Assembly (NCBI RefSeq): GCF_016714285.1 | Contig: NZ_JADJNN010000008.1 | Span: 132,669-196,668 of the forward strand | Direction of reading: 5' to 3' | DNA: 64,000 bases | From: Nannocystis sp. | GTDB taxonomy: Bacteria > Myxococcota_A > Polyangia > Nannocystales > Nannocystaceae | Part shown: one piece after another, positions 484 through 57,063 of the stretch | How the letters are laid out: the number at the start of each line of letters is the position of its first letter | Position numbering within the stretch: the stretch's first letter is position 1 | Position numbers and translations under genes: made by a program | Notes under the pieces: model-generated | The model's database searches: none | The model's input: only the letters and a program-made list of their open reading frames with translations | Told to the model about the DNA's origin: nothing

Positions 484-1539
484 TCAGCGGGGCTGCTTGC
501 GGGCGGTGCGGGCGGCGAGGCGGGTCTTGACGCGCTCGGCCTTGGCCTCCTCGGCGGCGAGGAGCTCGGCCTCGTCGCTGGCCTGGGCGGCCTCGAACTC
601 GTTCCACAGGCCGGTGAGGAGCTGGTCCTGATCGGTCCACGGGGTGCCGTCGAGGCCCTTGTCGGGCTCGACGCCCAGCATCTTGAGGGTGACGGCCTGG
701 TCCGGGTTGAGGCCGACTTTCTGGGCCCGGCCGCGGAAGAAGCGCTTCATCGTCGCGGCGGTCTCCTCGTACTTGCTGGGGCACAGCTTGCCGCCGCTGA
801 CGGCGCGGTGGACGGTCTCCCACGTGGCCTTGGTGGTGTAGTTGAAGGGCTTGCCCTGCTCGTCCTTGCAGACGATGTTGCCGCCGGCCTTGCGGATCAT
901 GCGGGCGGCGGCGCGGCGGTAGACGAGCACGTCGACGATCGCGTCGCAGAGGATGCGGGGGTCGGCGGTCTTGTCCCAGACCAGGGTGAAGTAGTTGGAG
1001 TTCATCCCGAACAGGCCGTAGGTCTGCCACACCGATGGGTCGGCGGCGTGGGGGTTGCCCTCGTAGGTCTTCTGCATCTTGCGCCACGCGGAGTAGCTGC
1101 CCTCGAGGTCGGGCGAGAGGCGGTGCACGAGGCCCTGCTGCAGGCTCGACTCGCGGGCGGCGACCAGCTGGAGCAGCTTGTGGAACTCGTCGCTGGCCTT
1201 GAGCCGCTTGGCGACGTGGGCGATGACGCGGTGGGTCCGGACCTGCTCGGTGCGGGTGAGCTTGGGGCGCTTGTCGTTGACGCCGTGGACGCAGGCGCAA
1301 GGCAGCAGGCCCTGCACGGCCGCGCGGTCGTCGATGAAGCTGCCTTCAGGATCGCGGTCGACGCGGACCGGCATCAGAGGCGCCGGAGCGCTGATGGCGT
1401 CGTCGAGGTTGTCGGCGGCGATGTGCCGACCGGGCAGCGTCCCATCCGCTTCATCCATCTTCGCACTGGCTCCATCGTCGAAGACATCGGTCAAGAAGCC
1501 GATGCAGTAGGCCAGGGCTGTCAGTTGCACCAATCGCAT
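484..1539 (-). CDS. Hypothetical secreted protein of 351 aa, unknown function
   Basis: The ORF has a hydrophobic N-terminus (MRLVQLTALAYCIGFLTDVF) and a non-biased composition. A GGGAGAG ribosome-binding site sits 7 nt upstream of the ATG at 1539. I did not recognise a family. Confidence 0.6.
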   Translation of the reverse strand: MRLVQLTALAYCIGFLTDVFDDGASAKMDEADGTLPGRHIAADNLDDAISAPAPLMPVRVDRDPEGSFIDDRAAVQGLLPCACVHGVNDKRPKLTRTEQVRTHRVIAHVAKRLKASDEFHKLLQLVAARESSLQQGLVHRLSPDLEGSYSAWRKMQKTYEGNPHAADPSVWQTYGLFGMNSNYFTLVWDKTADPRILCDAIVDVLVYRRAAARMIRKAGGNIVCKDEQGKPFNYTTKATWETVHRAVSGGKLCPSKYEETAATMKRFFRGRAQKVGLNPDQAVTLKMLGVEPDKGLDGTPWTDQDQLLTGLWNEFEAAQASDEAELLAAEEAKAERVKTRLAARTARKQPR

Positions 1540-2110
1540 TCCGGCACTCTCCCTTCGGCGGCAACCGCCGACGTGTTCCAGGACACCAAGGAGAAACCGA
1601 TCCAGTGTCTCCAGTCCATAGCCACGCGAAATTTTTTGCCGATCGCGGAGGGTTTAGATGCGCCCGCAGGGGCCCAAAGACGCGCTTATGCGGGACATTC
1701 CCGCCCGGCTCGCGGGCCCTGTTTCACTGTCAGATTGTGTGTGCGCGCGGGCTCGATCGAATGTGCCAGCCACAAGTTGTGGACCGCGATCGCGGCGCGC
1801 TCGCAAGATGTAGTGGTGTCACTGCCAGCCCCCGCGCGAGCTCGAGAGTCGCGCGCACTGGCAGGGTCGATGTCGCTTGCGGCGTCGTCGCGCGGCGCGA
1901 AACGGCCGCGTGCACGCGTGCTCCGGCGCAGATCAAGCGGGGCGGGTGATCGACGCGGTGGGTCGGCGCGCCTGATCGCTACGCGCGGCGCGCTCGCGGC
2001 GCTCGGGCCGGCGCCGCGGCGCGCCGCAGATGTCCTTGTCGACATGTCCCAAGCGCCAGGCTGTGCGCGGCGTGGACGGTGAGCGAGGCTGGCCTTCGGG
2101 ACAGCTTTGA

Positions 2111-3109
2111 TCACAGCTCGCGGAGGCCGCGGCGGCGCAGCAGCCACAGGAACAGCGGGGCGCCGAGCAGGCTGGTGAGCACGCCCGGCGGGAGGACGAC
2201 GCTGGTGAAGGCGCGGGCGAGGGTGTCGACGAGGAGGACGAGCACGGCGCCGAGCAGGGCGGCGCGCGGCAGCAAGTGGCGGTGACCGGGGCCGCCCTGC
2301 ATGCGCGCGAGGTGGGGGACCAGCAGGCCGACGAAGGCGATGACGCCGCTGATCGCCGTGGCGGCGCCGACCAGGAGGCCGACGGCGAGCACGGTGCGGC
2401 GGCGCAGGCGGACGAGGTCGACGCCGAGCGAGGCGGCGACGTCGTGGCCGAGGTGGAGGGTGTCGAGGTCGCGGCGCAGCGAGGCGGCGAGCGCGAGGCC
2501 GAGGACGCAGGGGGGCAGGGCCCAGGCGAGGTGGATCCAGGTGCGGCCCTCGAAGCTGCCGAGGCTCCACTGCATCACGCGCAGGCCGAGGTCCCAGCGC
2601 TGGGCGCCGAGGGCGAGGCAGAGGGTCGCGATCGCGGCGCAGAGGGTGCCGAGGGCGAAGCCGGAGAGCAGGAGGGTGGCGAGGCTGTGGTTGGCGCGGT
2701 GGAGGGCGAGGAGGATGACGAGGACCAGGCCCGCGCCGGCGGCGGCGAGCAGCGGGGTGACCCACAGGCCGCTGGATTCGGCGCCGAGGAGGAAGCCGAT
2801 GACGGCGGCGAGCATGGCCCCGGCGCTGACGCCGAGGACGCCGGGGTCGGCGAGCGGGTTGCGGAACAGGCCCTGGGTGAGGGCGCCGGCGCAGGCCAGG
2901 GCGGCGCCGACGAGCGCGGCGAGCAGGGCCCGGGGCAGGCGCAGCTGCCAGACGATCGCGTCGCGCAGCGGTGGGAGCGGGTCGCCGAGGCCGAGGTGGG
3001 CGAGCAGGCTGCGCAGGGCCTCGTCGAGGCCGACCTCGCCGGGACCTGTCCCGAGGGCCAGGAGCAGGGCGGCGGGGAGGAGCAGGGCGGTGAGGTGGCG
3101 CAGGCGCAT
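2111..3109 (-). CDS. btuC: ABC transporter permease of the FecCD/BtuC family
   Basis: The motif FRNPLADPGVLGVSAGA and the polytopic hydrophobic profile are typical of the FecCD family. It lies downstream of a BtuF-like binding protein in a riboswitch-controlled B12 locus. Confidence 0.9.
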   Translation of the reverse strand: MRLRHLTALLLPAALLLALGTGPGEVGLDEALRSLLAHLGLGDPLPPLRDAIVWQLRLPRALLAALVGAALACAGALTQGLFRNPLADPGVLGVSAGAMLAAVIGFLLGAESSGLWVTPLLAAAGAGLVLVILLALHRANHSLATLLLSGFALGTLCAAIATLCLALGAQRWDLGLRVMQWSLGSFEGRTWIHLAWALPPCVLGLALAASLRRDLDTLHLGHDVAASLGVDLVRLRRRTVLAVGLLVGAATAISGVIAFVGLLVPHLARMQGGPGHRHLLPRAALLGAVLVLLVDTLARAFTSVVLPPGVLTSLLGAPLFLWLLRRRGLREL

Positions 3110-3181
3110 GGGACTGGCGGGCGAGGACGCGGGCGGGCGGAGTCGTGGGCCAGCGAGCGGGCCGAGGCGGAGGTCAGCGGG

Positions 3182-4087
3182 TCAGCGGGCGAGGACGCGG
3201 GCCTGCAGGAGCTCGGCGCTGACGATCATACCCTCGCCGGTGCCGCCGAGGTCGCGGGCGGGGATGGCGATGATGCGGCCGTCGCGGGCGGCGCGGGTGG
3301 CCGCGATGCCGGGGCCGGCGGCGAAGCGGGCCTCGGCGGCGGGGCAGGCGGGGTCGTCGGCCTCGGCGGCGGGGCAGGCGATGACGATGACCTCGGGGTC
3401 CCAGGCGACGAGGCGCTCCATGGCCACAGGGACATGTCCCGAGAGACCTGCGCTTTCGGGCAGGTTGACGAGGCCCGCGGCGGCGGCGACGTCGGCGAAG
3501 GTCGTGGCGCCGGCGCTGGTGTGGCCGTCGCCCCAGGCGACCGCGGTGGGCGCGGGGTCGGGCCTGTGGGCGGCGAGGGCGGCGAGGCGGCGGTCGAGGT
3601 TGGCGATGCTGGCCTCGGCGGCGGGGCTGGCCTCGACGGCGGCGGCGAGCAGGCGGAGCTGACGGCGGTAGTCGGCGAAGCCGGTGAAGCTGTCGAGCTC
3701 GAGCAGGCGGACGCGGTGGGCGGTGAGGAGGGCCTTGATCTCGGGGGCGCTGAAGCTGGCGATGACGACCAGGTCGGGGTCGCGGGCGAGCAGGCCCTCG
3801 CTGGTGACGGCGAGGCGCGGGAGCTCGGGCGGCCACTGGCCGGCGACGCGGCTGTAGCGGGGGTCATCGGCCATGCTGCTGACGCCGACGACGCGGGCGC
3901 GCGCGGCCGGGCCGAGGCTCCACAGGATCTCGTCGCTCAGCACGGTCTGCGAGACGACGCGGTGGGCCGGGCCGGTGCTGGGGGTCGGGGTCGGGGCGCA
4001 GGCGGCGAGCAGCAGCGCGGCGAGGAGCGGGGCGCGACGATGCTGTCCTGAGGGACAGGTGATCTGGCCGGAGGGACAGGTGGTCAT
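3182..4087 (-). CDS. btuF: Periplasmic cobalamin/siderophore-type ABC substrate-binding lipoprotein, BtuF-like (Peripla_BP_2)
   Basis: The ORF track extends to 4555, but that upstream portion overlaps the neighbouring gene and is compositionally junk. The real start is the ATG at 4085-4087, giving MTTCPSGQITCPSGQHRRAPLLAALLLAACAP with lipobox LAAC, overlapping the upstream gene's stop as ATGA. The sequence RVVSQTVLSDEILWSLG...VVGVS resembles BtuF/FhuD-class binding proteins. Confidence 0.85.
   Translation of the reverse strand: MTTCPSGQITCPSGQHRRAPLLAALLLAACAPTPTPSTGPAHRVVSQTVLSDEILWSLGPAARARVVGVSSMADDPRYSRVAGQWPPELPRLAVTSEGLLARDPDLVVIASFSAPEIKALLTAHRVRLLELDSFTGFADYRRQLRLLAAAVEASPAAEASIANLDRRLAALAAHRPDPAPTAVAWGDGHTSAGATTFADVAAAAGLVNLPESAGLSGHVPVAMERLVAWDPEVIVIACPAAEADDPACPAAEARFAAGPGIAATRAARDGRIIAIPARDLGGTGEGMIVSAELLQARVLAR
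4044..4082. repeat. CTGTCC-tgag-GGACAG palindrome plus two copies of GAGGGACAGGTG with a 21-bp period, at the lipoprotein A / btuF junction
   Basis: The structure can be read directly. It encodes TCPSGQI TCPSGQH at the BtuF N-terminus. Confidence 0.9.
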
Positions 4088-5304
4088 GGGAGCGGGGTGG
4101 CGGCGTAGGGGGCCAGGCCGGTGGCGATCGGTGTGCCGGCGAAGCGCGGGGTCGGCGGGTCGGCGCGCAGGTCCCACGCGCGCATGCCGGCGGCGGTGGG
4201 GGTGACGTCGCCGAACCATAGCGTGTCGCCGACGATCTCGAGGGTGGGGCCGACCGACTGGAGGCCGCGGGCGACCTCGACGATCGGCGCGTCGTCGTCG
4301 AGGCTGGCGCGCAGGAGCAGCACCTGGGACAGGTCGGCGCTGTAGCTGGCGATGTAGGCGTGGCGGTGCTCGGCGTCGAGGTCGAAGGCCTGGGGCAGCT
4401 GGTAGTCGGCGAGGCCGATCGCGGCGAGGCGGGCGGGGTCGACGGCCCAGGTGGAGGTGCGCTGGGCCAGGTCGACGCGCTCGAGGCCGGTGGTGAGGAT
4501 CAGGACGCTGTGGCCGGTGGGGTCGGCGGGGTCGGGGCGCCACTGCCGGGCCCACAGGCCGAGCAGGGGCATGGCTTGCACGCCGGGGCTCGCGGGATCG
4601 AGGTCGTGGAGGCGGCGGCTCGGGAGGTCGATCGGGGCGAGGTGGTCGCGGGTGTCGGTGGGCGCGAGCAGCTGGTTCTGGTCGAGGCGCTGGACGCTGA
4701 CGAAGAGCGTGTCGCCGCAGCGGATCGCCAGGTGGGCCTCGGGGTTGCCGTCGGCGTCGGCGAGCGGTGCGAGGTCGATGTGGCCGGCGAGGCTCGGGCG
4801 CGCGGGGTCGGCGATGTCGACGATCTGCACGCGCGGGGCGCCGAACATGGTGACGTGGGCGAGGTCGCCGACGACGGTGACCGCGTGCGGGTTGCTGCTC
4901 TGGACGCCGGGGACGGCGAGGCTCTGCTGGCCGAGCAGGGCGAGGCTGTCGGGCGCGAGCAGGTCGAGGGCGTCGAAGGTGTAGCGGTGGAGGACGATCA
5001 GGCGGCCGTCGCTGAAGACAGGGAGCGAGTCGGTGGTGGCGAGGGCGAGGTCCTTGTGGAGCTCGCCGGTGGCGAGGTCGAGGATGCTGAGCGCGCCGGT
5101 GCTGAAGTCGGTGGTGGTGATGGCGAGGCGGGTCGGGTCGCTGAGCTCGCCGACGCAGGCCTCGTCGAGCTCGGGTGGGCCCGCGAGCGGGGGGGCGGCC
5201 CCGGTGTCGCTGGTGTCGCTGGCGGCGGAGCTGGCGTCGTCGTCGGGTGGGGCGCAGGCCAACACGAGGCTGGCCGCGAGGACAGGTGCGAGGGGGCGGC
5301 GCAT
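4084..5304 (-). CDS. Lipoprotein paralog A of the B12 locus, 407 aa, possibly a beta-propeller and possibly BtuG-like
   Basis: The real start is MRRPLAPVLAASLVLACAPP with lipobox LVLAC, at the ATG complement 5302-5304. It shares blocks with the next gene, for example HSVLILTTGLERVDLAQRTSTWAVDPARLAAIGL against HTILVLTSGIERVDLAHGTSSWAVDPAVLAAAGI. Repeated Asp-rich loop and strand periodicity suggests a propeller. Confidence 0.7.
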   Translation of the reverse strand: MRRPLAPVLAASLVLACAPPDDDASSAASDTSDTGAAPPLAGPPELDEACVGELSDPTRLAITTTDFSTGALSILDLATGELHKDLALATTDSLPVFSDGRLIVLHRYTFDALDLLAPDSLALLGQQSLAVPGVQSSNPHAVTVVGDLAHVTMFGAPRVQIVDIADPARPSLAGHIDLAPLADADGNPEAHLAIRCGDTLFVSVQRLDQNQLLAPTDTRDHLAPIDLPSRRLHDLDPASPGVQAMPLLGLWARQWRPDPADPTGHSVLILTTGLERVDLAQRTSTWAVDPARLAAIGLADYQLPQAFDLDAEHRHAYIASYSADLSQVLLLRASLDDDAPIVEVARGLQSVGPTLEIVGDTLWFGDVTPTAAGMRAWDLRADPPTPRFAGTPIATGLAPYAATPLP

Positions 5305-5306
5305 GG

Positions 5307-6590
5307 TCAGGGGATCGCGAGCAGGAGGTAGGGGTCGCCGGGGGTGGCGATCGGGTCGGCCTCGACCGGGGGATCCTCGCTGAGATCGAAGCTGCGCAGG
5401 CGGGGGTTGTCGGTGGCGGCGTCGCCGACCCACAGGAGCTCGCCGACGCGCTCGATCGCCTTGTCGCGGGCGGTGAGGCCGGGGATCAGCTTGTGCGCGC
5501 TCGGGGCTTGCTCGCCCAGGCGGACGCGGAAGACGGCGGCGGCCGGGTAGTCGCCGTCGGTGGCGAGGAGGTCGATGCTGGTGGCGTCGGCGGCGACGCT
5601 GAAGCCGATCGGATCGAAGCCGTCGATGCCGGCGGCGGCGAGCACCGCGGGGTCGACCGCCCAGCTGGATGTCCCATGGGCCAGGTCGACGCGCTCGATG
5701 CCGGAGGTGAGGACGAGGATGGTGTGGCCGCTCGGGTCAGCGGGGTCGAGGCGGGCCTGCTTGGGCCAGGGGCCGAGGAGGGCGATCGCCTGCTCACCGG
5801 GGGTGCTCGGGTCGACGTCGATCGGCTCGCCGGTGCCGAGGTTCATGGCGACGAGGTAGCTGAGGTCGACGGGGTTGAAGTTGACGAGGCGCTGGACGCC
5901 GACGAACAGGGCCTCGCCGCAGGTGAAGGCGAGGCCGGGCTCGGGGCTGCCGTCGCGGTCGGCGAAGTCGATCAGGCTGAGGGCGTCGACCTTGGCCTCG
6001 GCGGCCGGGAGGTCGAGGTCGTAGACGGGGAGCTGCGCGCTGGCGAAGGCGGTGAGGTGGGCGCGGCCGTCGGGGCCGAAGGCGAGGGCCTGCGGGTTGG
6101 GGTCGGCGACGCCGTCGACGCTGACCATGAGCGTGGGCTTGGCGGCCCAGGTGTCGCCGTCGAGGATGTCGAGGCTGTTGAAGCCGAAGCGGCCGATGAT
6201 GACCAGCTTGCCGTCGCCCCACGCGAGCGCGGAGTCGGCGGGGGCGGGCGCGATGTCGGGGGTGAGCTTGTTGCTGGCGAGGTCGAGGACGTGGACGCTG
6301 GCGGGGTCCATGAGGTTGTTGGTGAGGATCGCCAGGCGGGTCGCGGTGGTCGGGCCGAGCGCGCAGGGGGCGTCGAGCTCGATGACGGGGGCCGGGTCGC
6401 CGGTGGTGGCGGTGTCGGTCGTGGCGTCGGTGCTCGTCGGTGCGGTGGTGGGCGCGCTGGTCTGGCTGGTTTCACCTGTGCTTTCGGACATGTCTGTTGT
6501 GCCAGCTTCGGCGCTGTCGCCGGTGCCGTGACCGGTGTTGGTGTGGCAGGCGGAGAGGAGGAGGAGGACGGGGAGGGTGGGGCGGAGCAT
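5307..6590 (-). CDS. Lipoprotein paralog B of the B12 locus, 427 aa, possibly a beta-propeller and possibly BtuG-like
   Basis: It starts MLRPTLPVLLLLSACHTNTG with lipobox LLSAC, followed by a Thr/Ser-rich linker. It is a paralog of 4084..5304. Its ATG lies 3 nt after the btuB stop, in the arrangement TGAtccATG. Confidence 0.7.
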   Translation of the reverse strand: MLRPTLPVLLLLSACHTNTGHGTGDSAEAGTTDMSESTGETSQTSAPTTAPTSTDATTDTATTGDPAPVIELDAPCALGPTTATRLAILTNNLMDPASVHVLDLASNKLTPDIAPAPADSALAWGDGKLVIIGRFGFNSLDILDGDTWAAKPTLMVSVDGVADPNPQALAFGPDGRAHLTAFASAQLPVYDLDLPAAEAKVDALSLIDFADRDGSPEPGLAFTCGEALFVGVQRLVNFNPVDLSYLVAMNLGTGEPIDVDPSTPGEQAIALLGPWPKQARLDPADPSGHTILVLTSGIERVDLAHGTSSWAVDPAVLAAAGIDGFDPIGFSVAADATSIDLLATDGDYPAAAVFRVRLGEQAPSAHKLIPGLTARDKAIERVGELLWVGDAATDNPRLRSFDLSEDPPVEADPIATPGDPYLLLAIP

Positions 6591-6593
6591 GGA

Positions 6594-8840
6594 TCAGGTC
6601 TCGTGGCGGGCCGGGGCGTCGAGCTCGACGCGGAGGGTGGTCCACAGGCTGGTGCCGGGGAGCGGGTAGAAGAAGAAGTCGGAGACGGGGACGGTGATCG
6701 CGGGGGCGCCGGCGATCGGCGGGCGCCAGGTGGTGGTGCGGAGGTTGAAGAGGTTGCGCACCTCGGCGGCGAGGTGGACGCGGCGGGCGAGGTGCAGCTC
6801 GACGGCGAGGCCGTGGAGGGCGCGGCTCGGGACCTCGTAGCGGCCGCTCGGGTCGAGGAAGGTGCGGGCCGCGTAGTCGAAGCTGTAGACCAGGCGCGGC
6901 TCGAGATCGGTGCGCCTGGCCTTGAAGACATGTCCGAAAGAACCTTGCGCGAACAGCTCGTGGCGCGGGCGACCGGGCAGGGGCTGGCCGCGCTGGGAGG
7001 GGTCGTCGCCGAGGTTGACGGGGGCGAGCAGGGTGTAGTTGGCGGACAGGCGGATGTCGCCGCGGAGCAGGCGGAGCGCGGCGCTGGTCTCGAAGCCGGA
7101 GACGCGGGCGCGGGCGACGTTCACGGGGCGCAGGCTGGGACCGGCCTGCTGCCACTGGATCAGGCGGTCGCTCCACGTGACGAAGCCAGCGGCGTGGGCG
7201 TAGAGGGATGTGCGGGCGCGGGTGAGGTCGAGGATGAAGCCGCCGTCGAGGCTGCTGCCGCGCTCGGGTCGCAGGCCCTCGTTGCCGACGATGTAGCCGC
7301 GGTCGCCGAACAGCTCGAGCAGGCTCGGGGGACGGAAGTAGCGGCCGCCGGCGAGGCGGAGGGAGAGGCCGTGGACGAGGCCGAGGCGGGCGGCGAGGCG
7401 CGGGCTGGCGCCGAGCTCGAGGTGGTCGGCGCCCTGGTCGTTCTGCTCGCCGCTGCCGGCGGGGACGGCGAAGCGGCTGCGGAGGACGTCGAGGCGGACG
7501 ATCGGCTGGAGGTGGAGACGATCGCCGGCGAGGTGTTGATCGAGCTGGAGGCCGAGGCCGAGGTTGACGCGCTGGCGGTTGCTGTCGCCCTGGGGCGGCG
7601 TGAGCAGGCGCTGGTCGACGCGGCTCCACTCCTGGCGGGCGTCGGCCATGGCGAGCAGCTGGGCGCCGCGCCACAGATCGAGGGTGAGGCGCGGCGAGAG
7701 GTAGAGGTCGAGGTTCCGGGTGCGCTGGTCGTCGACCCCGAGGCCGACCTCGCCGAGCGGGTCGCGGTAGCGGGTGCGCTCGACGGCGAAGCCGGCGACC
7801 AGGTCGACGTGGCCGGGGCGACCGCCGTCGTCGCCGAGCTCGCGGCGCACCCGGGCGACGCTGCGGGCGACCAGAGTGTCCAGCCTGGTGGCACGCGCCT
7901 GCTGGCCGGTGGCGAGGCCGGGGATGCCCTGGTGCTTGTTGAGCAGCAGCTCCTGGACGCTGTAGCGCCACGCGCCGGCGCGGCCGTGAACGGCGAGCTG
8001 GGCGAGCAGGCGGTCGTAGTCGTTGTTCTGGCGCCGCTCGTTGTGGTCGTCGCGGGGGTCTTGCAGGGTCTCGCCGAGGTTGTGGAAGTTGAAGTCCCCG
8101 GTGGCGCCGGCGTGGCCGATGCGGAGGTCGAGGCAGGGGCCGCGGCGGCGCGGGGCGAGCGGGAGGGAGGTGCTGGCGCGGGCCTCGCTAGCGCCGAAGG
8201 AGCCGAGGCCGAGGACGGCGCCGAAGCGGCGGCGGGTCGGGTCGCAGCGCAGGTCGCTGCCGAGATCGAGGGCGCCGCCGATCGCCGCGCCGCCGTACGC
8301 GACCGGGACCAGGCCGCGGTGGATCGTGACGCGGCCGAGGCTGTCGAGCGGGAGGTCGCCGAGGTTGACGACCCCGCCGCTGCCGCCGACCGGGACGCCG
8401 TCGAGGAAGACCGACACCTGCTGGGCTGAGGAGCCGCGCAGCGAGAGGGCGGAGAACTGGCCGAGGCCGCCGAGTGAGCGCACGGTGGCGCCGGCGCTGC
8501 GACCGAGCAGCTCGGGCAGGCCGTCGGCCGGGCGGGCGCCGGTGGGGTTGGCGAGCTCGATGCTGGTGGCGAAGCCGGGGCTGGCGGCGTCCTGCCGGCG
8601 CTGGGCGTCGAGGCCGTCGCCGCGGCCGTGGGCGACGACGGTGCGGTAGGGCGGGCTGGTCTTTGGGACAGGCTGGGTTGGGCTGGTCTTTGGGACAGCG
8701 GGGCTGGTCTTTGGGACAGCGGGGCTGGTCTTTGGGACAGGTGGCGCGAGGGCGCGGAGCTCGCGGGTGGTCAGCAGGGCGGCCGCGCAGGCGCACGCAG
8801 GCGCGAGGCGCACGCAGGCGACACGTATCGCGAGCCGCAC
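6594..8840 (-). CDS. btuB: TonB-dependent outer-membrane receptor, BtuB-like, controlled by a cobalamin riboswitch
   Basis: The plug domain reads SIELANPTGARPADGLPELLGRSAGATVRSLGGLGQFSALSLRGSSAQQVSVFLDGVPVGG...TIHRGLVPVAYGGAAIGGALDLGS and is followed by a long beta-barrel. The N-terminal extension carries the repeat APPVPKTSPAVPKTSPAVPKTSPTQPVPKTSP. The start is GTG. The C-terminus is atypical, ending ...LWTTLRVELDAPARHET. Confidence 0.9.
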   Translation of the reverse strand: MRLAIRVACVRLAPACACAAALLTTRELRALAPPVPKTSPAVPKTSPAVPKTSPTQPVPKTSPPYRTVVAHGRGDGLDAQRRQDAASPGFATSIELANPTGARPADGLPELLGRSAGATVRSLGGLGQFSALSLRGSSAQQVSVFLDGVPVGGSGGVVNLGDLPLDSLGRVTIHRGLVPVAYGGAAIGGALDLGSDLRCDPTRRRFGAVLGLGSFGASEARASTSLPLAPRRRGPCLDLRIGHAGATGDFNFHNLGETLQDPRDDHNERRQNNDYDRLLAQLAVHGRAGAWRYSVQELLLNKHQGIPGLATGQQARATRLDTLVARSVARVRRELGDDGGRPGHVDLVAGFAVERTRYRDPLGEVGLGVDDQRTRNLDLYLSPRLTLDLWRGAQLLAMADARQEWSRVDQRLLTPPQGDSNRQRVNLGLGLQLDQHLAGDRLHLQPIVRLDVLRSRFAVPAGSGEQNDQGADHLELGASPRLAARLGLVHGLSLRLAGGRYFRPPSLLELFGDRGYIVGNEGLRPERGSSLDGGFILDLTRARTSLYAHAAGFVTWSDRLIQWQQAGPSLRPVNVARARVSGFETSAALRLLRGDIRLSANYTLLAPVNLGDDPSQRGQPLPGRPRHELFAQGSFGHVFKARRTDLEPRLVYSFDYAARTFLDPSGRYEVPSRALHGLAVELHLARRVHLAAEVRNLFNLRTTTWRPPIAGAPAITVPVSDFFFYPLPGTSLWTTLRVELDAPARHET
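8652..8740. repeat. In-frame tandem array inside btuB: four copies of GGGCTGGTCTTTGGGACAG, three with a 21-bp period
   Basis: The array can be read directly. It encodes PKTSPAV repeats. Confidence 0.9.
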
Positions 8841-9019
8841 GTAGGCGACGCGAATGAAGCTGCGGCGCCCGTGGGCGCGCGAGGGCGTGGGGATCTTGGG
8901 GACGATGGCGAGTGAACTCCCGTCTCACCGAGGTCGTCCGCGCCGGTGGGCGCAGGGACCTGCCGCCTTGTCAGGGCGGGGGAGCGCAGGGCAGGTCTCC
9001 TGGCTAAAGGGTCATCCTC

Positions 9020-9160
9020 GATCGACGCCTTCCCACGGTCCTGCGGGTGCAGGAGCTCGCAGTGGCTGCGTGTCGATCTCGTCGCCTCTCACAGTGGCGG
9101 GAGCCGCGTCGGTGTTGCACCGACTTCCCTCTTTCGCGTCCTGGGCCCTGGGCCCGGGAC
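9020..9160 (-). promoter_or_regulatory. Cobalamin (AdoCbl) riboswitch in the 5' leader of btuB
   Basis: The minus strand reads gaaagAGGGAAGTCGGTGCAACACCGACGCGGCTCCCGCCACTGTGAGAGGCGACGAGATCGACACGCAGCCACTGCGAGCTCCTGCACCCGCAGGACCGTGGGAAGGCG. This contains the conserved AGGGAA...GGTG.AA...CCCGCCACTGT element, a second GCCACTG B12 box and GGGAAGGC. It ends about 180 nt upstream of the btuB start. Confidence 0.75.
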
Positions 9161-9209
9161 GACCGTGCGCTCGAGTCTGTTTGTCAGGGAACGGCGCACT
9201 TGTCGCTCG

Positions 9210-9223
9210 CAAGCGCGCGCTTG
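9210..9223. promoter_or_regulatory. Perfect 14-bp palindrome CAAGCGCGCGCTTG, a candidate operator in the divergent region
   Basis: The palindrome can be read directly. It lies in the 560-bp non-coding region between the btuB leader and the metzincin gene, flanked by cttgtc repeats. Confidence 0.3.
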
Positions 9224-9398
9224 TCAACGACGCACGCGCGGACTTGCTGGGATTCTCACGCGCGCATGCGTACGGGGACGGAGAAACGTGCTGGCTGGCC
9301 CGTGGGAGCCGACATTAGTGGCATTTCGAGTGAGGATCGGACCCGGGTCGGACCTGTGGCGGGTTGCAATACCCACAAAACAAAAATAAGGTCAGTAG

Positions 9399-11012
9399 AT
9401 GAGAAACGCGCTCTCTGCTTCCTGTATTTTCATCACCGCGTTCGCCACCGGGTGTGGCGACGACAAGGCCGGGGACGAGGCGGGCGGCACGACGGAGGCC
9501 GCGAGCACGAGCGGCGGTGAGGACCCGACGACCGGCGAGCCCTTCGTGCCGTTTCCGGCGCGCGGCGGGATCGTGATCACGGCGGTCGAGGCCAACCCGG
9601 GGGTGGCGGTGCCGATCGGGAAGGAGGGCGCGCCGGTCGGCGGCAAGGACCGCACCTCGTATATCCCGAAGGGCCGCGACACGCTGATCCGGGCCTTCGT
9701 CGACGTGCCCGACGATTGGACCCCGCGGCCGATCGAGGCGCGCCTGATGCTGAGCGGCGGAGGCGTGGACCAGACGCTGCAACAGACAGTGACGATCAGC
9801 GAGGACTCGTTCGTGGGCGACCTGACCTCGACCTTTTACTTCGGCGTGCACGCGGACGTGATCGTGCCGGGGCTCAAGTACCAGATCGAGCTGTGGGAGG
9901 CGGCGCCGGGCCAGGAGGGGCTGCCCGAGGCGCCGACGCCGGTGGCGCTCAAGGACGGGCCGGGCCCGGTCGGGGTGGAGTCGGCCTTCACCGAGATGCG
10001 CGTGGTGTTGGTCCCGATCGACTACAGCTACGAGAGCTGCAACCAGAAGGTCGATGGCGAGGCGCAGCGCAAGGCCTTCGAGGACGCGCTGTTCCAGCAG
10101 AACGGCATCGCGTCGCTCGAGCTCGAGGTGCACGCGCCGTACAAGGTCGACTACGACATGGTCAGCTTCGGCGGCCTGAGCCAGCTGGTCAACGAGATGA
10201 GTCAGCTGCGCACGGTCGAGGCGGCCGACGACAACGTCTACTACTACGCGCTGTTCGACAGCTGCCACGGCTGCATCGGCGACGGCGGGATCCAGGGCGG
10301 GTGCACGGTCGGGCTCGCGGCCGACATCACCGGGCCCGATCCGGGCGACGCCCACTGGCGCGCCGCGGCCGGGCAGCTCATCGGGAACGCGGCCGAGACC
10401 TTCGTCCACGAGATCGGACACACGCAGGGGCGGCAGCACGTGTACTGCGCCGGCGCTGGCGTGCAGGCGCAGGGCACGGATCCGACTTATCCCCACGAGG
10501 ACGGGCGCATCGGCGTGTGGGGCTTTGGCGTCCGCGACTACAAGCTGCGCCATCCGACGGCCAACTCGGACTACATGAGCTACTGCGGGCAGGTCTGGGT
10601 CTCGGACTGGCAGTGGAACGCGACATACAACCGCATCGTGACGCTGAGCCAGTGGGAGAAGTCGGGCGCGGGGCAACCGGCGGGCGCCGGTGGCGGCGTG
10701 CTCATCGCCGCGGTCGACCCCGACGGCAAGCAGATGTGGTGGACCGGCCCCGGCGGGCTGAGCTCGTCGCGCGAGGCGAGCGCGACGCACTCGGTGATCT
10801 TCGAGTTCACGGACGGCGAGGTCGAGGCGCAGGCGCAGGTCAGCGTGCGCCCGCACTACGCGACCCGGAACATCGTCGCCGCGTTGCCGGCGGGCTTCGA
10901 CGAGCGCGAGCTCGTGAGCGTGAAGCTGCGCGACGAGCAGGGTGAGCGCCGCGTGGAGGCGGCGGCGATCCGTCGCCTCCACCACCCGGATCGCCTGCGA
11001 GACGCGCGCTAG
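9399..11012 (+). CDS. Secreted lipoprotein, metzincin-type zinc metalloprotease
   Basis: It starts MRNALSASCIFITAFATGCGDD with lipobox ATGC. The motif HEIGHTQGRQH matches HExxHxxGxxH, and a Met-turn follows at SDYMSY. An unusual AT-rich patch (ccacaaaacaaaaataaggtcagtag) precedes the ATG. Confidence 0.8.
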   Translation: MRNALSASCIFITAFATGCGDDKAGDEAGGTTEAASTSGGEDPTTGEPFVPFPARGGIVITAVEANPGVAVPIGKEGAPVGGKDRTSYIPKGRDTLIRAFVDVPDDWTPRPIEARLMLSGGGVDQTLQQTVTISEDSFVGDLTSTFYFGVHADVIVPGLKYQIELWEAAPGQEGLPEAPTPVALKDGPGPVGVESAFTEMRVVLVPIDYSYESCNQKVDGEAQRKAFEDALFQQNGIASLELEVHAPYKVDYDMVSFGGLSQLVNEMSQLRTVEAADDNVYYYALFDSCHGCIGDGGIQGGCTVGLAADITGPDPGDAHWRAAAGQLIGNAAETFVHEIGHTQGRQHVYCAGAGVQAQGTDPTYPHEDGRIGVWGFGVRDYKLRHPTANSDYMSYCGQVWVSDWQWNATYNRIVTLSQWEKSGAGQPAGAGGGVLIAAVDPDGKQMWWTGPGGLSSSREASATHSVIFEFTDGEVEAQAQVSVRPHYATRNIVAALPAGFDERELVSVKLRDEQGERRVEAAAIRRLHHPDRLRDAR

Positions 11013-14214: not shown

Positions 14215-15903
<1,689 letters not shown>

Positions 15904-54650: not shown

Positions 54651-57063
54651 GGGCGACCCGCGCGGCGGCCTCGGCGGCCTCACGTGCCGCTTCAGCCGTT
54701 GCCTCCGCGGCCTCGGCCTCGCGCGCCAGATCTTCGGCCGCGGCCGCCGTCTCGCGGGCGATTCGCTCGGCCCGGTGGCGCTCGGCCGCGACGCGCAGCT
54801 CGCCCGCCTCCGGCCCGCGCAGCAGCAGGCAAGTCAGCGGGGGCAGGGTGATGCGCAGCGAGAAGGGCCGATCGTGGGCTGGCTCGGGCTCGGCCTCGAA
54901 GCTGTCTGCCAGCGACACGATCGCCGTCTGTTCATCGCCGCTGTAGGCCGCCGCGTCGCTGCGATCGATCAGGGTCCAGCGCCCCTCGGCGGGCACGCCG
55001 ATGCGCTGCTCCGTCCACGTCACCGGGGTGAAGTTCAGGGCCACGAGCATCACCGGTCCGCGGCTCGGCAGGCGCATGTACACCGCCAGGCTGCGCTGGC
55101 GATCGTCGACCACCATCCACTCGAAGCCCGCGGGATCGTGGTCGAGCTCGTGCAGCGCCGGGTCGGCGCGGTAGAGCTGGGCCACGCGACGCAGCCAGCG
55201 CAGCGCGCCCGCGTGCGCCGGCGATCGGAGCAGCTCCCAGTCGAGCTCGCGCTCGTGGCTCCACTCGCGCACCTGGCCGAACTCGCCGCCCATGAACAGC
55301 AGCTTGCGGCCCGGCGTGCTGAACATGTACCCGAGCAGCAGGCGCAGGCCGGCGAACTTCGCGGGCGTGTCCCCGTACATCTTGCGGATCAGCGAGCCCT
55401 TGCCGTGCACGACCTCGTCGTGCGACAGCGGCAGCATGTAGCGCTCGTTGTACGCGTACCACATGCGAAAGGTCAGCTCGTTGTGGTGCTGCGCGCGCGT
55501 GACGGGGTCGCGGCCGAGGTAGCGCAGGCTGTCGTGCATCCAGCCCATGTCCCACTTGAGATCGAAGCCGAGGCCGCCGCGCTCGACCGGGCCGGTGACC
55601 AGCGGCCACGCCGTCGACTCCTCCGCGATCGTGATCACGCCCGGGTGGCGCGCGTGGATCGTCTGGTTCAGCGCCCGCAGGAAGGCGACCGCCTCGAGGT
55701 TCTCGCGCCCGCCGTGCGCGTTCGGCTGCCACTGGCCGGGCTGACGCGAGTAGTCGAGGTAGAGCATCGAGGCCACCGCGTCGACCCGGATCGCGTCGAC
55801 GTGATAGCGCTCGATCCACATGGACGCGGAGCTGAGCAGGAAGGCCCGCACCTCGTGGCGCCCGTGGTTGAAGATCAGCGTGTTCCAGTCCGGGTGCACG
55901 CCGCGGCTCGGGTCGCGGTGCTCGTAGAGATAGGTGCCGTCGAAGCGGTGCAGCCCGTGCGCGTCGCCCGGGAAGTGGCCCGGCACCCAGTCGAGGATCA
56001 CCCCGATCTCGGCGCGGTGCAGCTCGTCGATCAGGTACATCAGCGCCTGCGGCCCGCCGTAGCGGGCGCTCGGGGCGAAGTAGCCGCTGGTCTGGTAGCC
56101 CCACGATCCGTAGAAGGGGTGCTCGGTGAGCGGCATGAACTCGACGTGGGTGAAGCCCAGCGCCCGCACGTGCGCGACCAGCTTCGCCGCGATCTCGCGG
56201 TAGCCGAGCCACGCGCCCTCGGGCCCGCGCAGCCACGAGCCGAGGTGCAGCTCGTAGACCGAGATCGGCGCGTGTCGACCTTGCCGCGCGGCCCGCTCGC
56301 GCAGCCACGCGTCGTCGCGCCAGGCGTACTCGAGGTCGGCGATCCGCGAGGCCGTGTGCGGCGGCAGCTCCGTGGCCAGCGCGCAGGGGTCGGCCTTGTC
56401 GAGCACCTCGCCGCGCATCCCGATCACACGGTACTTGTAGAGCATCCCGACCGCCGCCTCGGCGACGCGCCCGATCCACAGCCCGCCGCCGCCGCGCGCG
56501 AGCGGGTGGCGGAAGGGGTCCCAGTCGTTCCACTCGCCGATCACGCTGACGTGGCGCGCGTTCGGGGCCCACACCGCGAACTGCACGCCGCCCTCGGCGA
56601 GCAGCTGCGCGCCGAGCTTTTCATACAACCGCAGGTGCGTGCCCTCGGCGAGGTAGTGCAGGTCGTCGGCGCTGATGCTGGGGTCTTGGGTCGGCCGCGC
56701 GAGGTAAAGCCGCGGATCTGCGGGCGCCTCGGGCACCTCGGGTACCTCGTCGGGCAGATACAAGATGGCGTCCGCGCTGGCCGCGAGCACCTCGGCGGGG
56801 CTGTCCTTCGGGACAGGTACATCGTCGCCGAGGTACACGATCGCCTCGGTCTGCACGGCCACCTCATCGCCCGAGACGTCGACTGTCACCGCGGCCTCGG
56901 CCTCCGCCTCGGCCTGCTCCGGCCTGGCCTTCGGGACAGGTGCATCGTCGGGCAGGTACAGGATCGAGTCGGCGTTGCTGGCCAGCACCGCCGCTGCCCT
57001 GGGCTTCGCCCGCGCCGTGCCCTGCTTCGTCTCCCTCGATGGTTGCCGCGGACGCTTGCTCAT
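54610..57063 (-). CDS. glgB: 1,4-alpha-glucan branching enzyme with a ~130-aa N-terminal extension
   Basis: The GH13 branching-enzyme core reads HVEFMPLTEHPFYGSWGYQ...ILDWVPGHF. The N-terminal extension carries the repeats ILYLPDDAPVPK...VYLGDDVPVPK...ILYLPDEVPEVPE. Confidence 0.9.
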   Translation of the reverse strand: MSKRPRQPSRETKQGTARAKPRAAAVLASNADSILYLPDDAPVPKARPEQAEAEAEAAVTVDVSGDEVAVQTEAIVYLGDDVPVPKDSPAEVLAASADAILYLPDEVPEVPEAPADPRLYLARPTQDPSISADDLHYLAEGTHLRLYEKLGAQLLAEGGVQFAVWAPNARHVSVIGEWNDWDPFRHPLARGGGGLWIGRVAEAAVGMLYKYRVIGMRGEVLDKADPCALATELPPHTASRIADLEYAWRDDAWLRERAARQGRHAPISVYELHLGSWLRGPEGAWLGYREIAAKLVAHVRALGFTHVEFMPLTEHPFYGSWGYQTSGYFAPSARYGGPQALMYLIDELHRAEIGVILDWVPGHFPGDAHGLHRFDGTYLYEHRDPSRGVHPDWNTLIFNHGRHEVRAFLLSSASMWIERYHVDAIRVDAVASMLYLDYSRQPGQWQPNAHGGRENLEAVAFLRALNQTIHARHPGVITIAEESTAWPLVTGPVERGGLGFDLKWDMGWMHDSLRYLGRDPVTRAQHHNELTFRMWYAYNERYMLPLSHDEVVHGKGSLIRKMYGDTPAKFAGLRLLLGYMFSTPGRKLLFMGGEFGQVREWSHERELDWELLRSPAHAGALRWLRRVAQLYRADPALHELDHDPAGFEWMVVDDRQRSLAVYMRLPSRGPVMLVALNFTPVTWTEQRIGVPAEGRWTLIDRSDAAAYSGDEQTAIVSLADSFEAEPEPAHDRPFSLRITLPPLTCLLLRGPEAGELRVAAERHRAERIARETAAAAEDLAREAEAAEATAEAAREAAEAAARVARVAAAIASELAGE

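Follow-up and report, generated by a model that had tools for sequence, protein, structure and literature searches.

The window considered here is a 64,000-nucleotide stretch of the genome of Nannocystis sp. (Myxococcota), in which a cobalamin riboswitch on the minus strand precedes the genes for a TonB-dependent receptor, two predicted beta-propeller lipoproteins (A and B), a substrate-binding protein and an ATP-binding cassette (ABC) permease. Taking the explanation as a whole, we regard it as quite likely that the riboswitch heads a five-gene corrinoid-uptake operon, that it acts as a kissing-loop OFF switch on a receptor translated from an AUC codon, and that the two propellers are distant relatives of the Bacteroides lipoprotein BtuG and would capture corrinoids for the receptor. 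The wider proposal holds that BtuG-type lipoprotein-capped B12 receptors occur beyond Bacteroidota (in Myxococcota, Candidatus Eisenbacteria, Binatia and uncultured lineages), that the lipoprotein was duplicated in the Nannocystis clade into two specialised paralogues and that the AUC start is conserved within the kissing-loop platform; with all its parts taken jointly, it is a proposal that we slightly favour.

The window was compared with all 4227 Rfam families (cmscan), and the single match at the gathering threshold was the Cobalamin family, RF00174, on the minus strand upstream of the receptor gene as the original prediction had claimed. The score was three times the gathering score and far beyond chance. 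The alignment spanned model positions 1-189 of 189 and was not truncated; it included the B12 box, GCGGCUCCCGCCACUGU, which contains the aptamer loop L5, as well as the peripheral extension with a second GCCACUG and the GGGAAGGC motif. The motifs that had been quoted for the riboswitch (AGGGAAGTCGGTGCAACACCGACGCGGCTCCCGCCACTGTGA, GCAGCCACTGCGAGC and GTGGGAAGGCG) are present exactly in the minus-strand sequence of 9020-9160. This segment, proposed as the location of the element, holds the conserved core, but the aptamer occupies 8973-9182 and the regulatory hairpin reaches 8907. The open reading frame (ORF) at 9012-9227, described as antisense junk, does exist (71 aa, TTG start) but is not antisense, lying on the minus strand like the riboswitch; three longer plus-strand ORFs also overlap the region and are junk of a kind common in a genome of 70-77% GC, the range found in the window. 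The identity as a cobalamin riboswitch is virtually certain. The riboswitch is of class-I type and probably adenosyl-corrinoid-sensing, a selectivity for adenosylcobalamin being suggested by its class-I-type architecture. The call itself is routine, and any Rfam-based pipeline would make it.

The association of the riboswitch with this receptor is conserved. In all five loci fetched via lipoprotein homologues, RF00174 was found upstream of the receptor (93.6-125.1 bits). A scan of one genome per species gave 33 related loci with a lipoprotein relative (referred to below by L numbers), which were searched with a covariance model of the riboswitch core (137 positions). A copy on the same strand was present in 28 of the 33, 2.3-5.2 kb upstream of the lipoprotein gene; in L027 the copy lies 1.7 kb upstream. 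Of the five loci in which the core was not found, four are contigs of 1.6-3.2 kb and the fifth, from Verrucomicrobiales, is missing the receptor too. In 30 aligned homologous copies standard pairs occupied 94.5% of the cells, and 23 of the 40 pairs showed changes on both sides; the alignment was fitted to the model, which favours pairing. In the controls, slid partners were paired in at most 48% and gave at most 10 compensatory pairs, and none of 500 shuffles matched the observed values. The expected multi-helix fold is thus backed by covariation. A second riboswitch core was observed in L029, a metagenome-assembled genome (MAG) labelled 'Deltaproteobacteria', at 15625-15761 on the minus strand (72.2 bits), opposite in strand to the uptake operon and downstream of it.

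The five genes follow one another closely (Table 1). The receptor stop codon is separated from lipoprotein A by 3 nt and the stop of A from lipoprotein B by 2 nt, and the ATG of the binding-protein gene overlaps the stop of lipoprotein B (ATGA, 4084-4087), which suggests translational coupling of the binding protein to lipoprotein B. The receptor matched the Plug (PF07715) and TonB_dep_Rec_b-barrel (PF00593) models, combining a plug with a 22-strand barrel, and was syntenic in 30 loci, synteny being assessed by tblastn. Its plug is closest to an unnamed receptor (9gbc), followed by E. coli BtuB and B. thetaiotaomicron BtuB1; besides 9gbc, BtuB proteins were the only solved TonB-dependent receptors that it matched at E <= 1e-3. 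The N-terminus of the binding protein, MTTCPSGQITCPSGQHRRAPLLAALLLAAC (3990-4087, minus strand), ends in a lipobox, so that the BtuF-like protein appears from its sequence to be a lipoprotein and not a soluble periplasmic protein. The original prediction had renamed receptor, permease and binding protein BtuB, BtuC and BtuF. These names are appropriate as functional labels given by context, but the equivalog cutoffs were missed: the receptor scored 71.7 versus 599.7 bits for TIGR01779 and 50.9 versus 836 bits for NF007926, and the permease, whose best NCBIfam match is BtuC (NF003001), scored 231.5 versus 334 bits, while the binding protein is nearer to PhuT and HutB (see below). The assignment as a B12-uptake locus, for its part, agrees with the presence of the riboswitch upstream of the same operon in 28 of the 33 related loci, and a B12-uptake operon is very likely. 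Separately, an apparent frameshift divides the receptor gene in the isolate genomes of Nannocystis punicea CP114040 (L001 and L010) and N. pusilla (L011); the gene caller gave separate Plug and barrel ORFs in L001, and tblastn found two pieces in L001, L010 and L011. The split receptor is either a pseudogene or an assembly error.

Lipoproteins A and B, which the original prediction had passed over, did not match any Pfam or NCBIfam model. They share 38% identity with each other (E 3e-66), and a protein of a Nannocystis sp. MAG shares 99% with lipoprotein A. Nearly all of the 64 close homologues belong to Nannocystaceae or other Myxococcales, and those with a name are without exception 'hypothetical'. 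Across 40 homologues the lipobox cysteine (LLSAC, LVLAC) and two further cysteines are invariant. AlphaFold2 modelled both proteins as all-beta, seven-bladed propellers behind a disordered N-terminal tether, with a mean predicted local distance difference test (pLDDT) score of 87.2 and a predicted TM score (pTM) of 0.83 for A, and 91.8 and 0.88, respectively, for B. When these models were searched with Foldseek against 350,542 Protein Data Bank (PDB) chains, the top matches were almost entirely cobalamin-bound BtuG1, BtuG2 and BtuG3 of Bacteroides thetaiotaomicron (E from 5.5e-12; TM score 0.66-0.73 normalised to the target), and BtuG was ranked first by two structural algorithms for both paralogues.

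A relationship at the sequence level was found with a diverse profile (A5), built by adding distant members that all matched the narrow Nannocystaceae profile (A1) at E <= 5e-27. Among 177,635 PDB sequences, the top 12 matches of A5 were all BtuG proteins or homologues; BtuG3 was matched at E 4.6e-8 over profile positions 11-360 of 383, and the next match, NirF, had an E-value of 0.003. Alignment of the A5 family with BtuG3 by hhalign gave a probability of 96% (E 4.4e-9, 297 columns), the lipobox cysteines falling in the same column. When the 16 members most like BtuG3 were taken out, 92% remained (E 5.7e-7), and the signal faded gradually as diversity dropped. The sources of the intermediate members are not Bacteroidota but metagenomes and MAGs of uncultured 'Deltaproteobacteria' and Spirochaetota. 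BtuG3 itself falls in Pfam DUF5074 (PF16819; 72.7 bits, gathering score 27.2), and this model weakly matched 6 of 46 members of the broader family (best E 1.3e-5). Conserved acidic and polar residues of the lipoproteins (D92, D119, R134, D138, N165, D211, D213, E217 and D250) lie in the N-terminal half; BtuG2 contacts the corrinoid, with high affinity, through conserved hydrogen-bonding residues in blades 1-4 (PMC10404256). Judged by profiles and models, the lipoproteins are best described as putative distant BtuG-like members of a broader propeller family that appears dedicated to cobalamin-riboswitch-controlled receptors.

This family has no Pfam or NCBIfam model of its own. It is large (about 1,950 clusters at 50% identity): among 1.84 billion representatives searched, 1,947 matched at E <= 1e-3, of which 106 reached E <= 1e-30. 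A homologous receptor gene stands directly before the lipoprotein gene in about 30 loci from several phyla, the order being reversed in L027, and in most of these loci, including those of Candidatus Eisenbacteria, the riboswitch directly precedes that receptor. A riboswitch-controlled receptor with the lipoprotein gene directly after it was found in Myxococcota, Eisenbacteria and unclassified MAGs. The single-copy loci resemble lipoprotein B, and A is therefore taken as a duplication in the Nannocystis clade. In L037 and L039 (HR30, Binatia) another secreted propeller gene stands between riboswitch and receptor. Its secreted product of 462 aa has NHL/SGL-like repeats and a tail rich in Cys (L037, 4785-6509; L039, 4800-6524); the gene lies ahead of the receptor-lipoprotein pair and represents a second, different propeller under B12 control. 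Distant members (P0117, P0121 and others in A5) often carry FlgD_ig (15 of 46) and type IX secretion system (T9SS) Por_Secre_tail (7 of 46) domains in place of the lipobox; the T9SS tails indicate type IX secretion as the export route of the propeller in some lineages.

The leader downstream of the aptamer contains a hairpin, not noted in the original prediction, that corresponds to P13 of known cobalamin riboswitches and has the form GGUGAG-ACGGGAGUNNA-CUCGCC in the window. The window, where it occupies 8929-8904, and 21 loci have in common the pattern GGUGAG-A-CGGGAG-UNNA-CUCGCC-AUC. Its loop, CGGGAG (8917-8922), is Shine-Dalgarno-like and is at the same time the exact complement of L5, CUCCCG (9103-9098), the sequence of which is invariant among Nannocystaceae copies. 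Between the aptamer core and the hairpin next to the start codon, spacings of about 22 to 151 nt occur in the different loci. Of the 42 occurrences of CGGGAG in leaders, 41 lie in a loop closed by a stem of 5 bp or more, versus 67 of 370 (18%) elsewhere in the same loci. At least seven different stem sequences were found across leaders, among them GGUGAG/CUCGCC, GGUCCA/UGGACC, GAGGUCG/CGACCUC, GCCCA/UGGGC, UCAGA/UCUGG and UGAGA/UCUCA. Since the stems differ between loci, the selected feature is the hexamer in the loop. In L037 and L039 L5 reads CCCCCG and the loop of the start-codon hairpin CGGGGAG, a U:A pair having been replaced by C:G. A promoter scan of 8600-9450 found nothing, a TTGACA at 9222-9227 having no convincing -10 partner.

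Further structures were observed in the leaders. Most sister loci (L009-L020, L006) have at least one extra CGGGAG-loop hairpin nearer the aptamer, about 26-120 nt after the core, such as GGUCCA-CGGGAGGA-UGGACC, and L009-L014 have two; L015-L017, L019 and L020 have an L5-like GGGCUCCCGCC(U)CCC segment ahead of the hairpin with the ribosome-binding site. The window and L003 have a single hairpin only. The extra hairpins and L5-like segments may elaborate the expression platform as decoys or relays. In the minimum free energy (MFE) fold of the window at 8950-8995 (minus strand), the 3' strand of the aptamer (GGAGACCUGCC) pairs with the downstream GGCAGGUCC, a possible ligand-free structure. The corresponding alternative hairpin, in which GACCUGCC of the aptamer 3' strand pairs with GGCAGGUC, is missing from the sister leaders and was rejected as a conserved switch.

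The start codon of the receptor was assigned by comparison of the loci. An in-frame TGA lies 21 nt upstream of the AUC, inside the 5' stem of the hairpin, and no canonical start occurs between this TGA and the AUC. From the AUC the frame of the window is open for 770 codons into the receptor. Among the 20 ATC-bearing loci, 17 have a corresponding frame that continues for 706-808 codons, and the other three have a frameshifted receptor. The peptides read from the AUC are signal peptides, for example (M)ARASRPSLFTASLALALVPGGVDA and (M)TRRRPYPPLFSALAGLLGAATAAAPAAA. No ATG, GTG or TTG was found within the first 75 codons in L003 (the closest relative), L010 and L018, or before the end of the hydrophobic core in L002, L016, L017 and L020. 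At the position of the AUC, Paraliomyxa-type loci have TTG (L023, L025) or ATC-TTG (L022, L024), and the distant L005 has a canonical AUG. In the window GGGAG precedes the AUC by 10 nt. Initiation at the conserved position after the hairpin, and at the AUC in the Nannocystis clade, seems fairly likely from these sequence comparisons. With such an unrecognised start, gene-caller receptor lengths would be expected to vary, and those in the related loci range from 625 to 750 aa.

The following mechanism is proposed for the operon. At high intracellular cobalamin, the ligand-bound aptamer would dock L5 on the hairpin loop; because this loop is the Shine-Dalgarno-like sequence of the receptor gene, docking would block ribosome loading and switch the operon off. 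The receptor would most likely be translated from the conserved weak AUC directly 3' of the hairpin. The downstream genes would probably follow through translational coupling, as the 3-nt and 2-nt gaps and the ATGA overlap make probable. The lipid-anchored propellers A and B would capture corrinoids and hand them over to the TonB-dependent outer-membrane receptor, and the lipoprotein-type binding protein and the ABC permease would take part in transport together with an ATPase encoded elsewhere.

Several observations weigh against this explanation and were considered together with the alternatives to which they lend themselves. The nearest solved relatives of the binding protein are the haem-binding PhuT (2r79) and HutB, no BtuF chain having been matched among solved structures at E <= 0.001, and the strongest NCBIfam match of the receptor is the N-terminal part of the siderophore receptor MxcH. 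The operon could be imagined to import another tetrapyrrole, such as haem, or only incomplete corrinoids (cobinamide), with the riboswitch merely tying it to B12 status. This is very improbable: the targets of cobalamin riboswitches are overwhelmingly the transport or biosynthesis of corrinoids or B12-independent isozymes, the plug, among solved receptors, matches BtuB of both E. coli and B. thetaiotaomicron, the permease has BtuC as its best match and the lipoproteins resemble corrinoid binders. Uptake of incomplete corrinoids would moreover be compatible with a corrinoid-uptake operon, BtuG itself binding cobinamide. No ABC ATPase (BtuD, as an ORF with Walker A and LSGGQ motifs) was found in the window or in the Nannocystis-type loci. 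A BtuD-like ATPase gene directly follows the permease in the Paraliomyxa-type loci (L022-L025) and in L029, at about 13.6-14.8 kb, and in the Nannocystis clade the operon has either lost the ATPase gene or had it relocated. As to the lipoproteins, the narrow profile A1 showed no similarity to BtuG (hmmsearch E > 10; hhalign probability 0.12%) and only faint propeller matches among PDB sequences (E about 0.1), so that the sequence link is a two-step one via distant members, and neither A nor B matched DUF5074 even at E <= 1. The propellers might instead be outer-membrane lipoproteins facing the periplasm, or enzymes or scaffolds of the YncE/lactonase type that merely share the operon, and not receptor partners that capture B12. 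We consider this unlikely. BtuG came first with both structural algorithms for both paralogues, and the twelve best PDB matches of the diverse profile, all BtuG, were more than four orders of magnitude in E-value ahead of NirF and YncE. The gene also directly follows a cobalamin-riboswitch-controlled TonB-dependent receptor across several phyla, which is the defining genomic signature of BtuG (PMC6143338, PMC10404256), and the T9SS sorting tails of distant members imply export to the surface. A BtuG-like role of the lipoproteins in corrinoid capture, which would involve B12 binding at the cell surface, is reasonably probable.

For the regulatory step, the covariation between L5 and the loop amounts to one event, L5 and loop being otherwise invariant, and the J1/13 linker of the window (43 nt from the Rfam aptamer end, 59 nt from the core-model end) is long by the standard of the kissing-loop switches that have been characterised. 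Long linkers weaken kissing-loop regulation (PMC5028336). Regulation might be mainly transcriptional, through Rho-dependent or intrinsic termination or mRNA decay, and the hairpin only a structural element of the ribosome-binding site and start codon. The alternative hairpin of the window MFE fold and a classic U-tract terminator after the aptamer in L037 and L039 would fit such regulation, and E. coli btuB couples translational with transcriptional effects. In the window leader, however, no U-tract terminator or terminator-like site was found in the scan of 8600-9450, and the alternative hairpin is not conserved among the sister leaders. The feature that is conserved is a loop-displayed CGGGAG complementary to the invariant L5, with one compensatory change, and mainly transcriptional control is judged rather improbable. 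Kissing-loop translational control by docking of L5 on the loop is suggested by this complementarity and is likely, a grade kept at this level because of the single loop-loop covariation event and the long linker. With respect to the start codon, the true start in the window could be GTG 8840, the ATC being kept for RNA structure and the open frame upstream of the GTG being incidental. Its product, MRLAIRVACVRLAPACACAAALL, is a plausible signal peptide, stop codons are rare in DNA of 75% GC, and AUC is a very weak initiator in model bacteria. On the other hand, GTG 8840 is not preceded by a Shine-Dalgarno-like sequence whereas the AUC is preceded by GGGAG, L003 shares ATC-GTC-CCC with no canonical start in 75 codons, L010, L016 and L018 reach the end of the signal peptide without one, and the frame is kept although the peptides differ greatly in length and sequence. 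Initiation at GTG 8840 is therefore doubtful, though a real possibility, and the AUC is retained as the candidate start.

Table 1. Features of the riboswitch-controlled operon and its leader (positions in the window)
Feature	Position	Strand	Remarks
Cobalamin riboswitch aptamer (RF00174)	8973..9182	-	98.4 bits versus gathering score 31.5, E 2.4e-23
Aptamer loop L5, CUCCCG, within GCGGCUCCCGCCACUGU	9098..9103	-	From structure line of RF00174 alignment (<<______>>)
Linker between aptamer and regulatory hairpin (J1/13 equivalent)	8930..8972	-	Sequence and length differ between loci
Regulatory hairpin (P13 equivalent), GGUGAG-A-CGGGAG-UUCA-CUCGCC	8907..8929	-	Identical or near-identical in window and 21 loci
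AUC, putative non-canonical receptor start	8904..8906	-	Conserved, directly 3' of hairpin
TonB-dependent receptor (BtuB-like)	6594..8906	-	770 aa from AUC; alternative GTG 8840 gives 748 aa
21-bp tandem repeat within receptor gene	8653..8740	-	3.9 copies, 91% matches; encodes (P)AVPKTS repeats
Lipoprotein A, BtuG-like seven-bladed beta-propeller (predicted)	5307..6590	-	Lipobox LLSAC, disordered tether of ~60 aa
Lipoprotein B, paralogue of A	4084..5304	-	Lipobox LVLAC; ancestral-type copy
Periplasmic binding protein (BtuF-like by context)	3182..4087	-	Peripla_BP_2 PF01497, E 1.9e-14; lipobox LLAAC
FecCD-family ABC permease (BtuC-like)	2111..3109	-	PF01032, E 3.5e-83

Within the receptor gene, the (P)AVPKTS repeats form a Pro-rich linker between the signal peptide and the conserved mature N-terminus PPYRTVV. 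This linker is absent from related loci and specific to the window genome. A motif CTGTCC(C/T)-N3-5-G(G/A)(C/T)CAG is strongly enriched in the operon (2089-8740). Copies were found on the minus strand at 8725, 8704, 8683, 8656, 5285, 4079, 4058 and 2104, also at 56939, and on the plus strand at 3046; they sit in signal-peptide regions, just past the permease stop codon and once in a glgB-like gene. The strict form gave 9 matches versus 0.07 expected, 8 of the 9 inside the operon. TGTCCC-N3-GNCCAG was considered as an operator or an element resembling repetitive extragenic palindromes belonging to the conserved mechanism and was rejected, as it does not recur at equivalent positions in any related locus (0.027 per kb there); the motif is specific to the window genome.

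Divergently from the operon, 9399-11012 on the plus strand encodes a 537-aa predicted lipoprotein with a HEIGH zinc-metalloprotease-like motif and a sub-threshold Reprolysin_5 match. It is kept in this position in all Nannocystis-type loci (48-63% identity), where it shares the intergenic region that holds the riboswitch and promoter. Downstream, the permease gene is followed by about 570 nt of non-coding-looking sequence (1540-2110) and by a gene for a 351-aa protein with no Pfam or NCBIfam match (484-1539, minus strand). The latter is found downstream of the operon in Nannocystaceae (56-70% identity) and probably forms a transcription unit of its own. Housekeeping genes make up the remainder of the window, among them those for biotin carboxylase, CTP synthase, rpoN and ptsI.

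Taken alone, the riboswitch annotates a B12-uptake operon and would correct a mis-called receptor start. The interest of the locus lies in the candidate BtuG-like lipoproteins outside Bacteroidota. If the propellers do capture corrinoids for the receptor, the strategy would be much older and more widespread than described; predators of soil and sediment, Nannocystis among them, and several uncultured phyla would use it as well, and about 2,000 protein clusters, all 'hypothetical' where checked, would gain a testable function. The conserved AUC, if used as proposed, would be one of the few natural examples in which a very weak initiation codon is hard-wired beside a riboswitch-controlled ribosome-binding site, and a systematic source of wrong gene starts in automated annotation of such genomes.

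The proposed AUC start has a parallel in E. coli, where infC and pcnB are initiated at the non-AUG codon AUU. As in these genes, a conserved weak AUH start lies at a normal distance from a Shine-Dalgarno sequence; in contrast to them, the codon proposed here from sequence is AUC, belongs to an outer-membrane receptor gene and is embedded in a riboswitch platform. Among class-I riboswitches, a cobalamin-dependent L5-L13 kissing loop is known to occlude the ribosome-binding site (PMC5028336). The present element resembles these switches (E. coli btuB leader; env8 and Thermoanaerobacter structures; Polaski et al., 2016, PMC5028336) in its full RF00174 architecture with B12 box and peripheral extension, in its place upstream of a TonB-dependent B12 receptor and in a downstream hairpin whose loop is complementary to L5 and contains the presumed ribosome-binding site. 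It differs in the long and, from locus to locus, highly variable linker, in the presence of two CGGGAG-loop hairpins and an L5-like decoy in many sister loci, and in the AUC, instead of AUG or GUG, as the presumed start after the hairpin.

The transport genes resemble E. coli BtuB/BtuF/BtuCD in comprising a riboswitch-controlled TonB-dependent receptor, a cluster-A Peripla_BP_2 binding protein and a FecCD permease. They differ in that all the proteins fall short of the NCBIfam equivalog cutoffs, the binding protein is predicted to be a lipoprotein and is closer to haem-binding proteins than to BtuF, and the locus has no BtuD ATPase, while the Paraliomyxa-type sister loci retain one. The XusAB xenosiderophore system of Bacteroides also has a propeller lipoprotein, XusB, that caps a TonB-dependent transporter, but compared with BtuG it matches lipoproteins A and B with a lower score and has neither a sequence-profile link to them nor a cobalamin riboswitch.

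BtuG homologues were reported to occur 'exclusively' in Bacteroidetes (Wexler et al., 2018, PMC6143338), and BtuG and lipoprotein-capped TonB transporters have been described as Bacteroidetes-confined and as adapted to competition in the gut (PMC6143338; Abellon-Ruiz et al., 2023, PMC10404256). BtuG binds cobinamide and diverse corrinoids (PMC10404256). In a review of September 2026 only BtuH and BtuJ homologues are discussed beyond Bacteroidota, and full-text literature searches found no BtuG-like protein outside Bacteroidota or in myxobacteria. The Nannocystis locus shares with the Bacteroides BtuB-BtuG loci (PMC6143338, PMC10404256) a cobalamin riboswitch, a TonB-dependent receptor and an adjacent seven-bladed propeller lipoprotein, followed by BtuF- and BtuC-type genes. 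Unlike Bacteroides BtuG, lipoproteins A and B have 9-16% sequence identity to it and no DUF5074 match, occur as two tandem paralogues instead of one and have a long tether (~60 aa) rich in Thr, Ser and Asp. They belong to the phylum Myxococcota (with relatives in Eisenbacteria, Binatia and others), which does not have the lipoprotein export signal system of Bacteroidota, and their operon has none of the accessory genes BtuH, BtuJ or BtuK. The operon appears to represent a new form of the BtuBG-type B12 uptake of Bacteroides, found here in another phylum and combined with a conserved platform of kissing-loop type and, probably, an AUC start.

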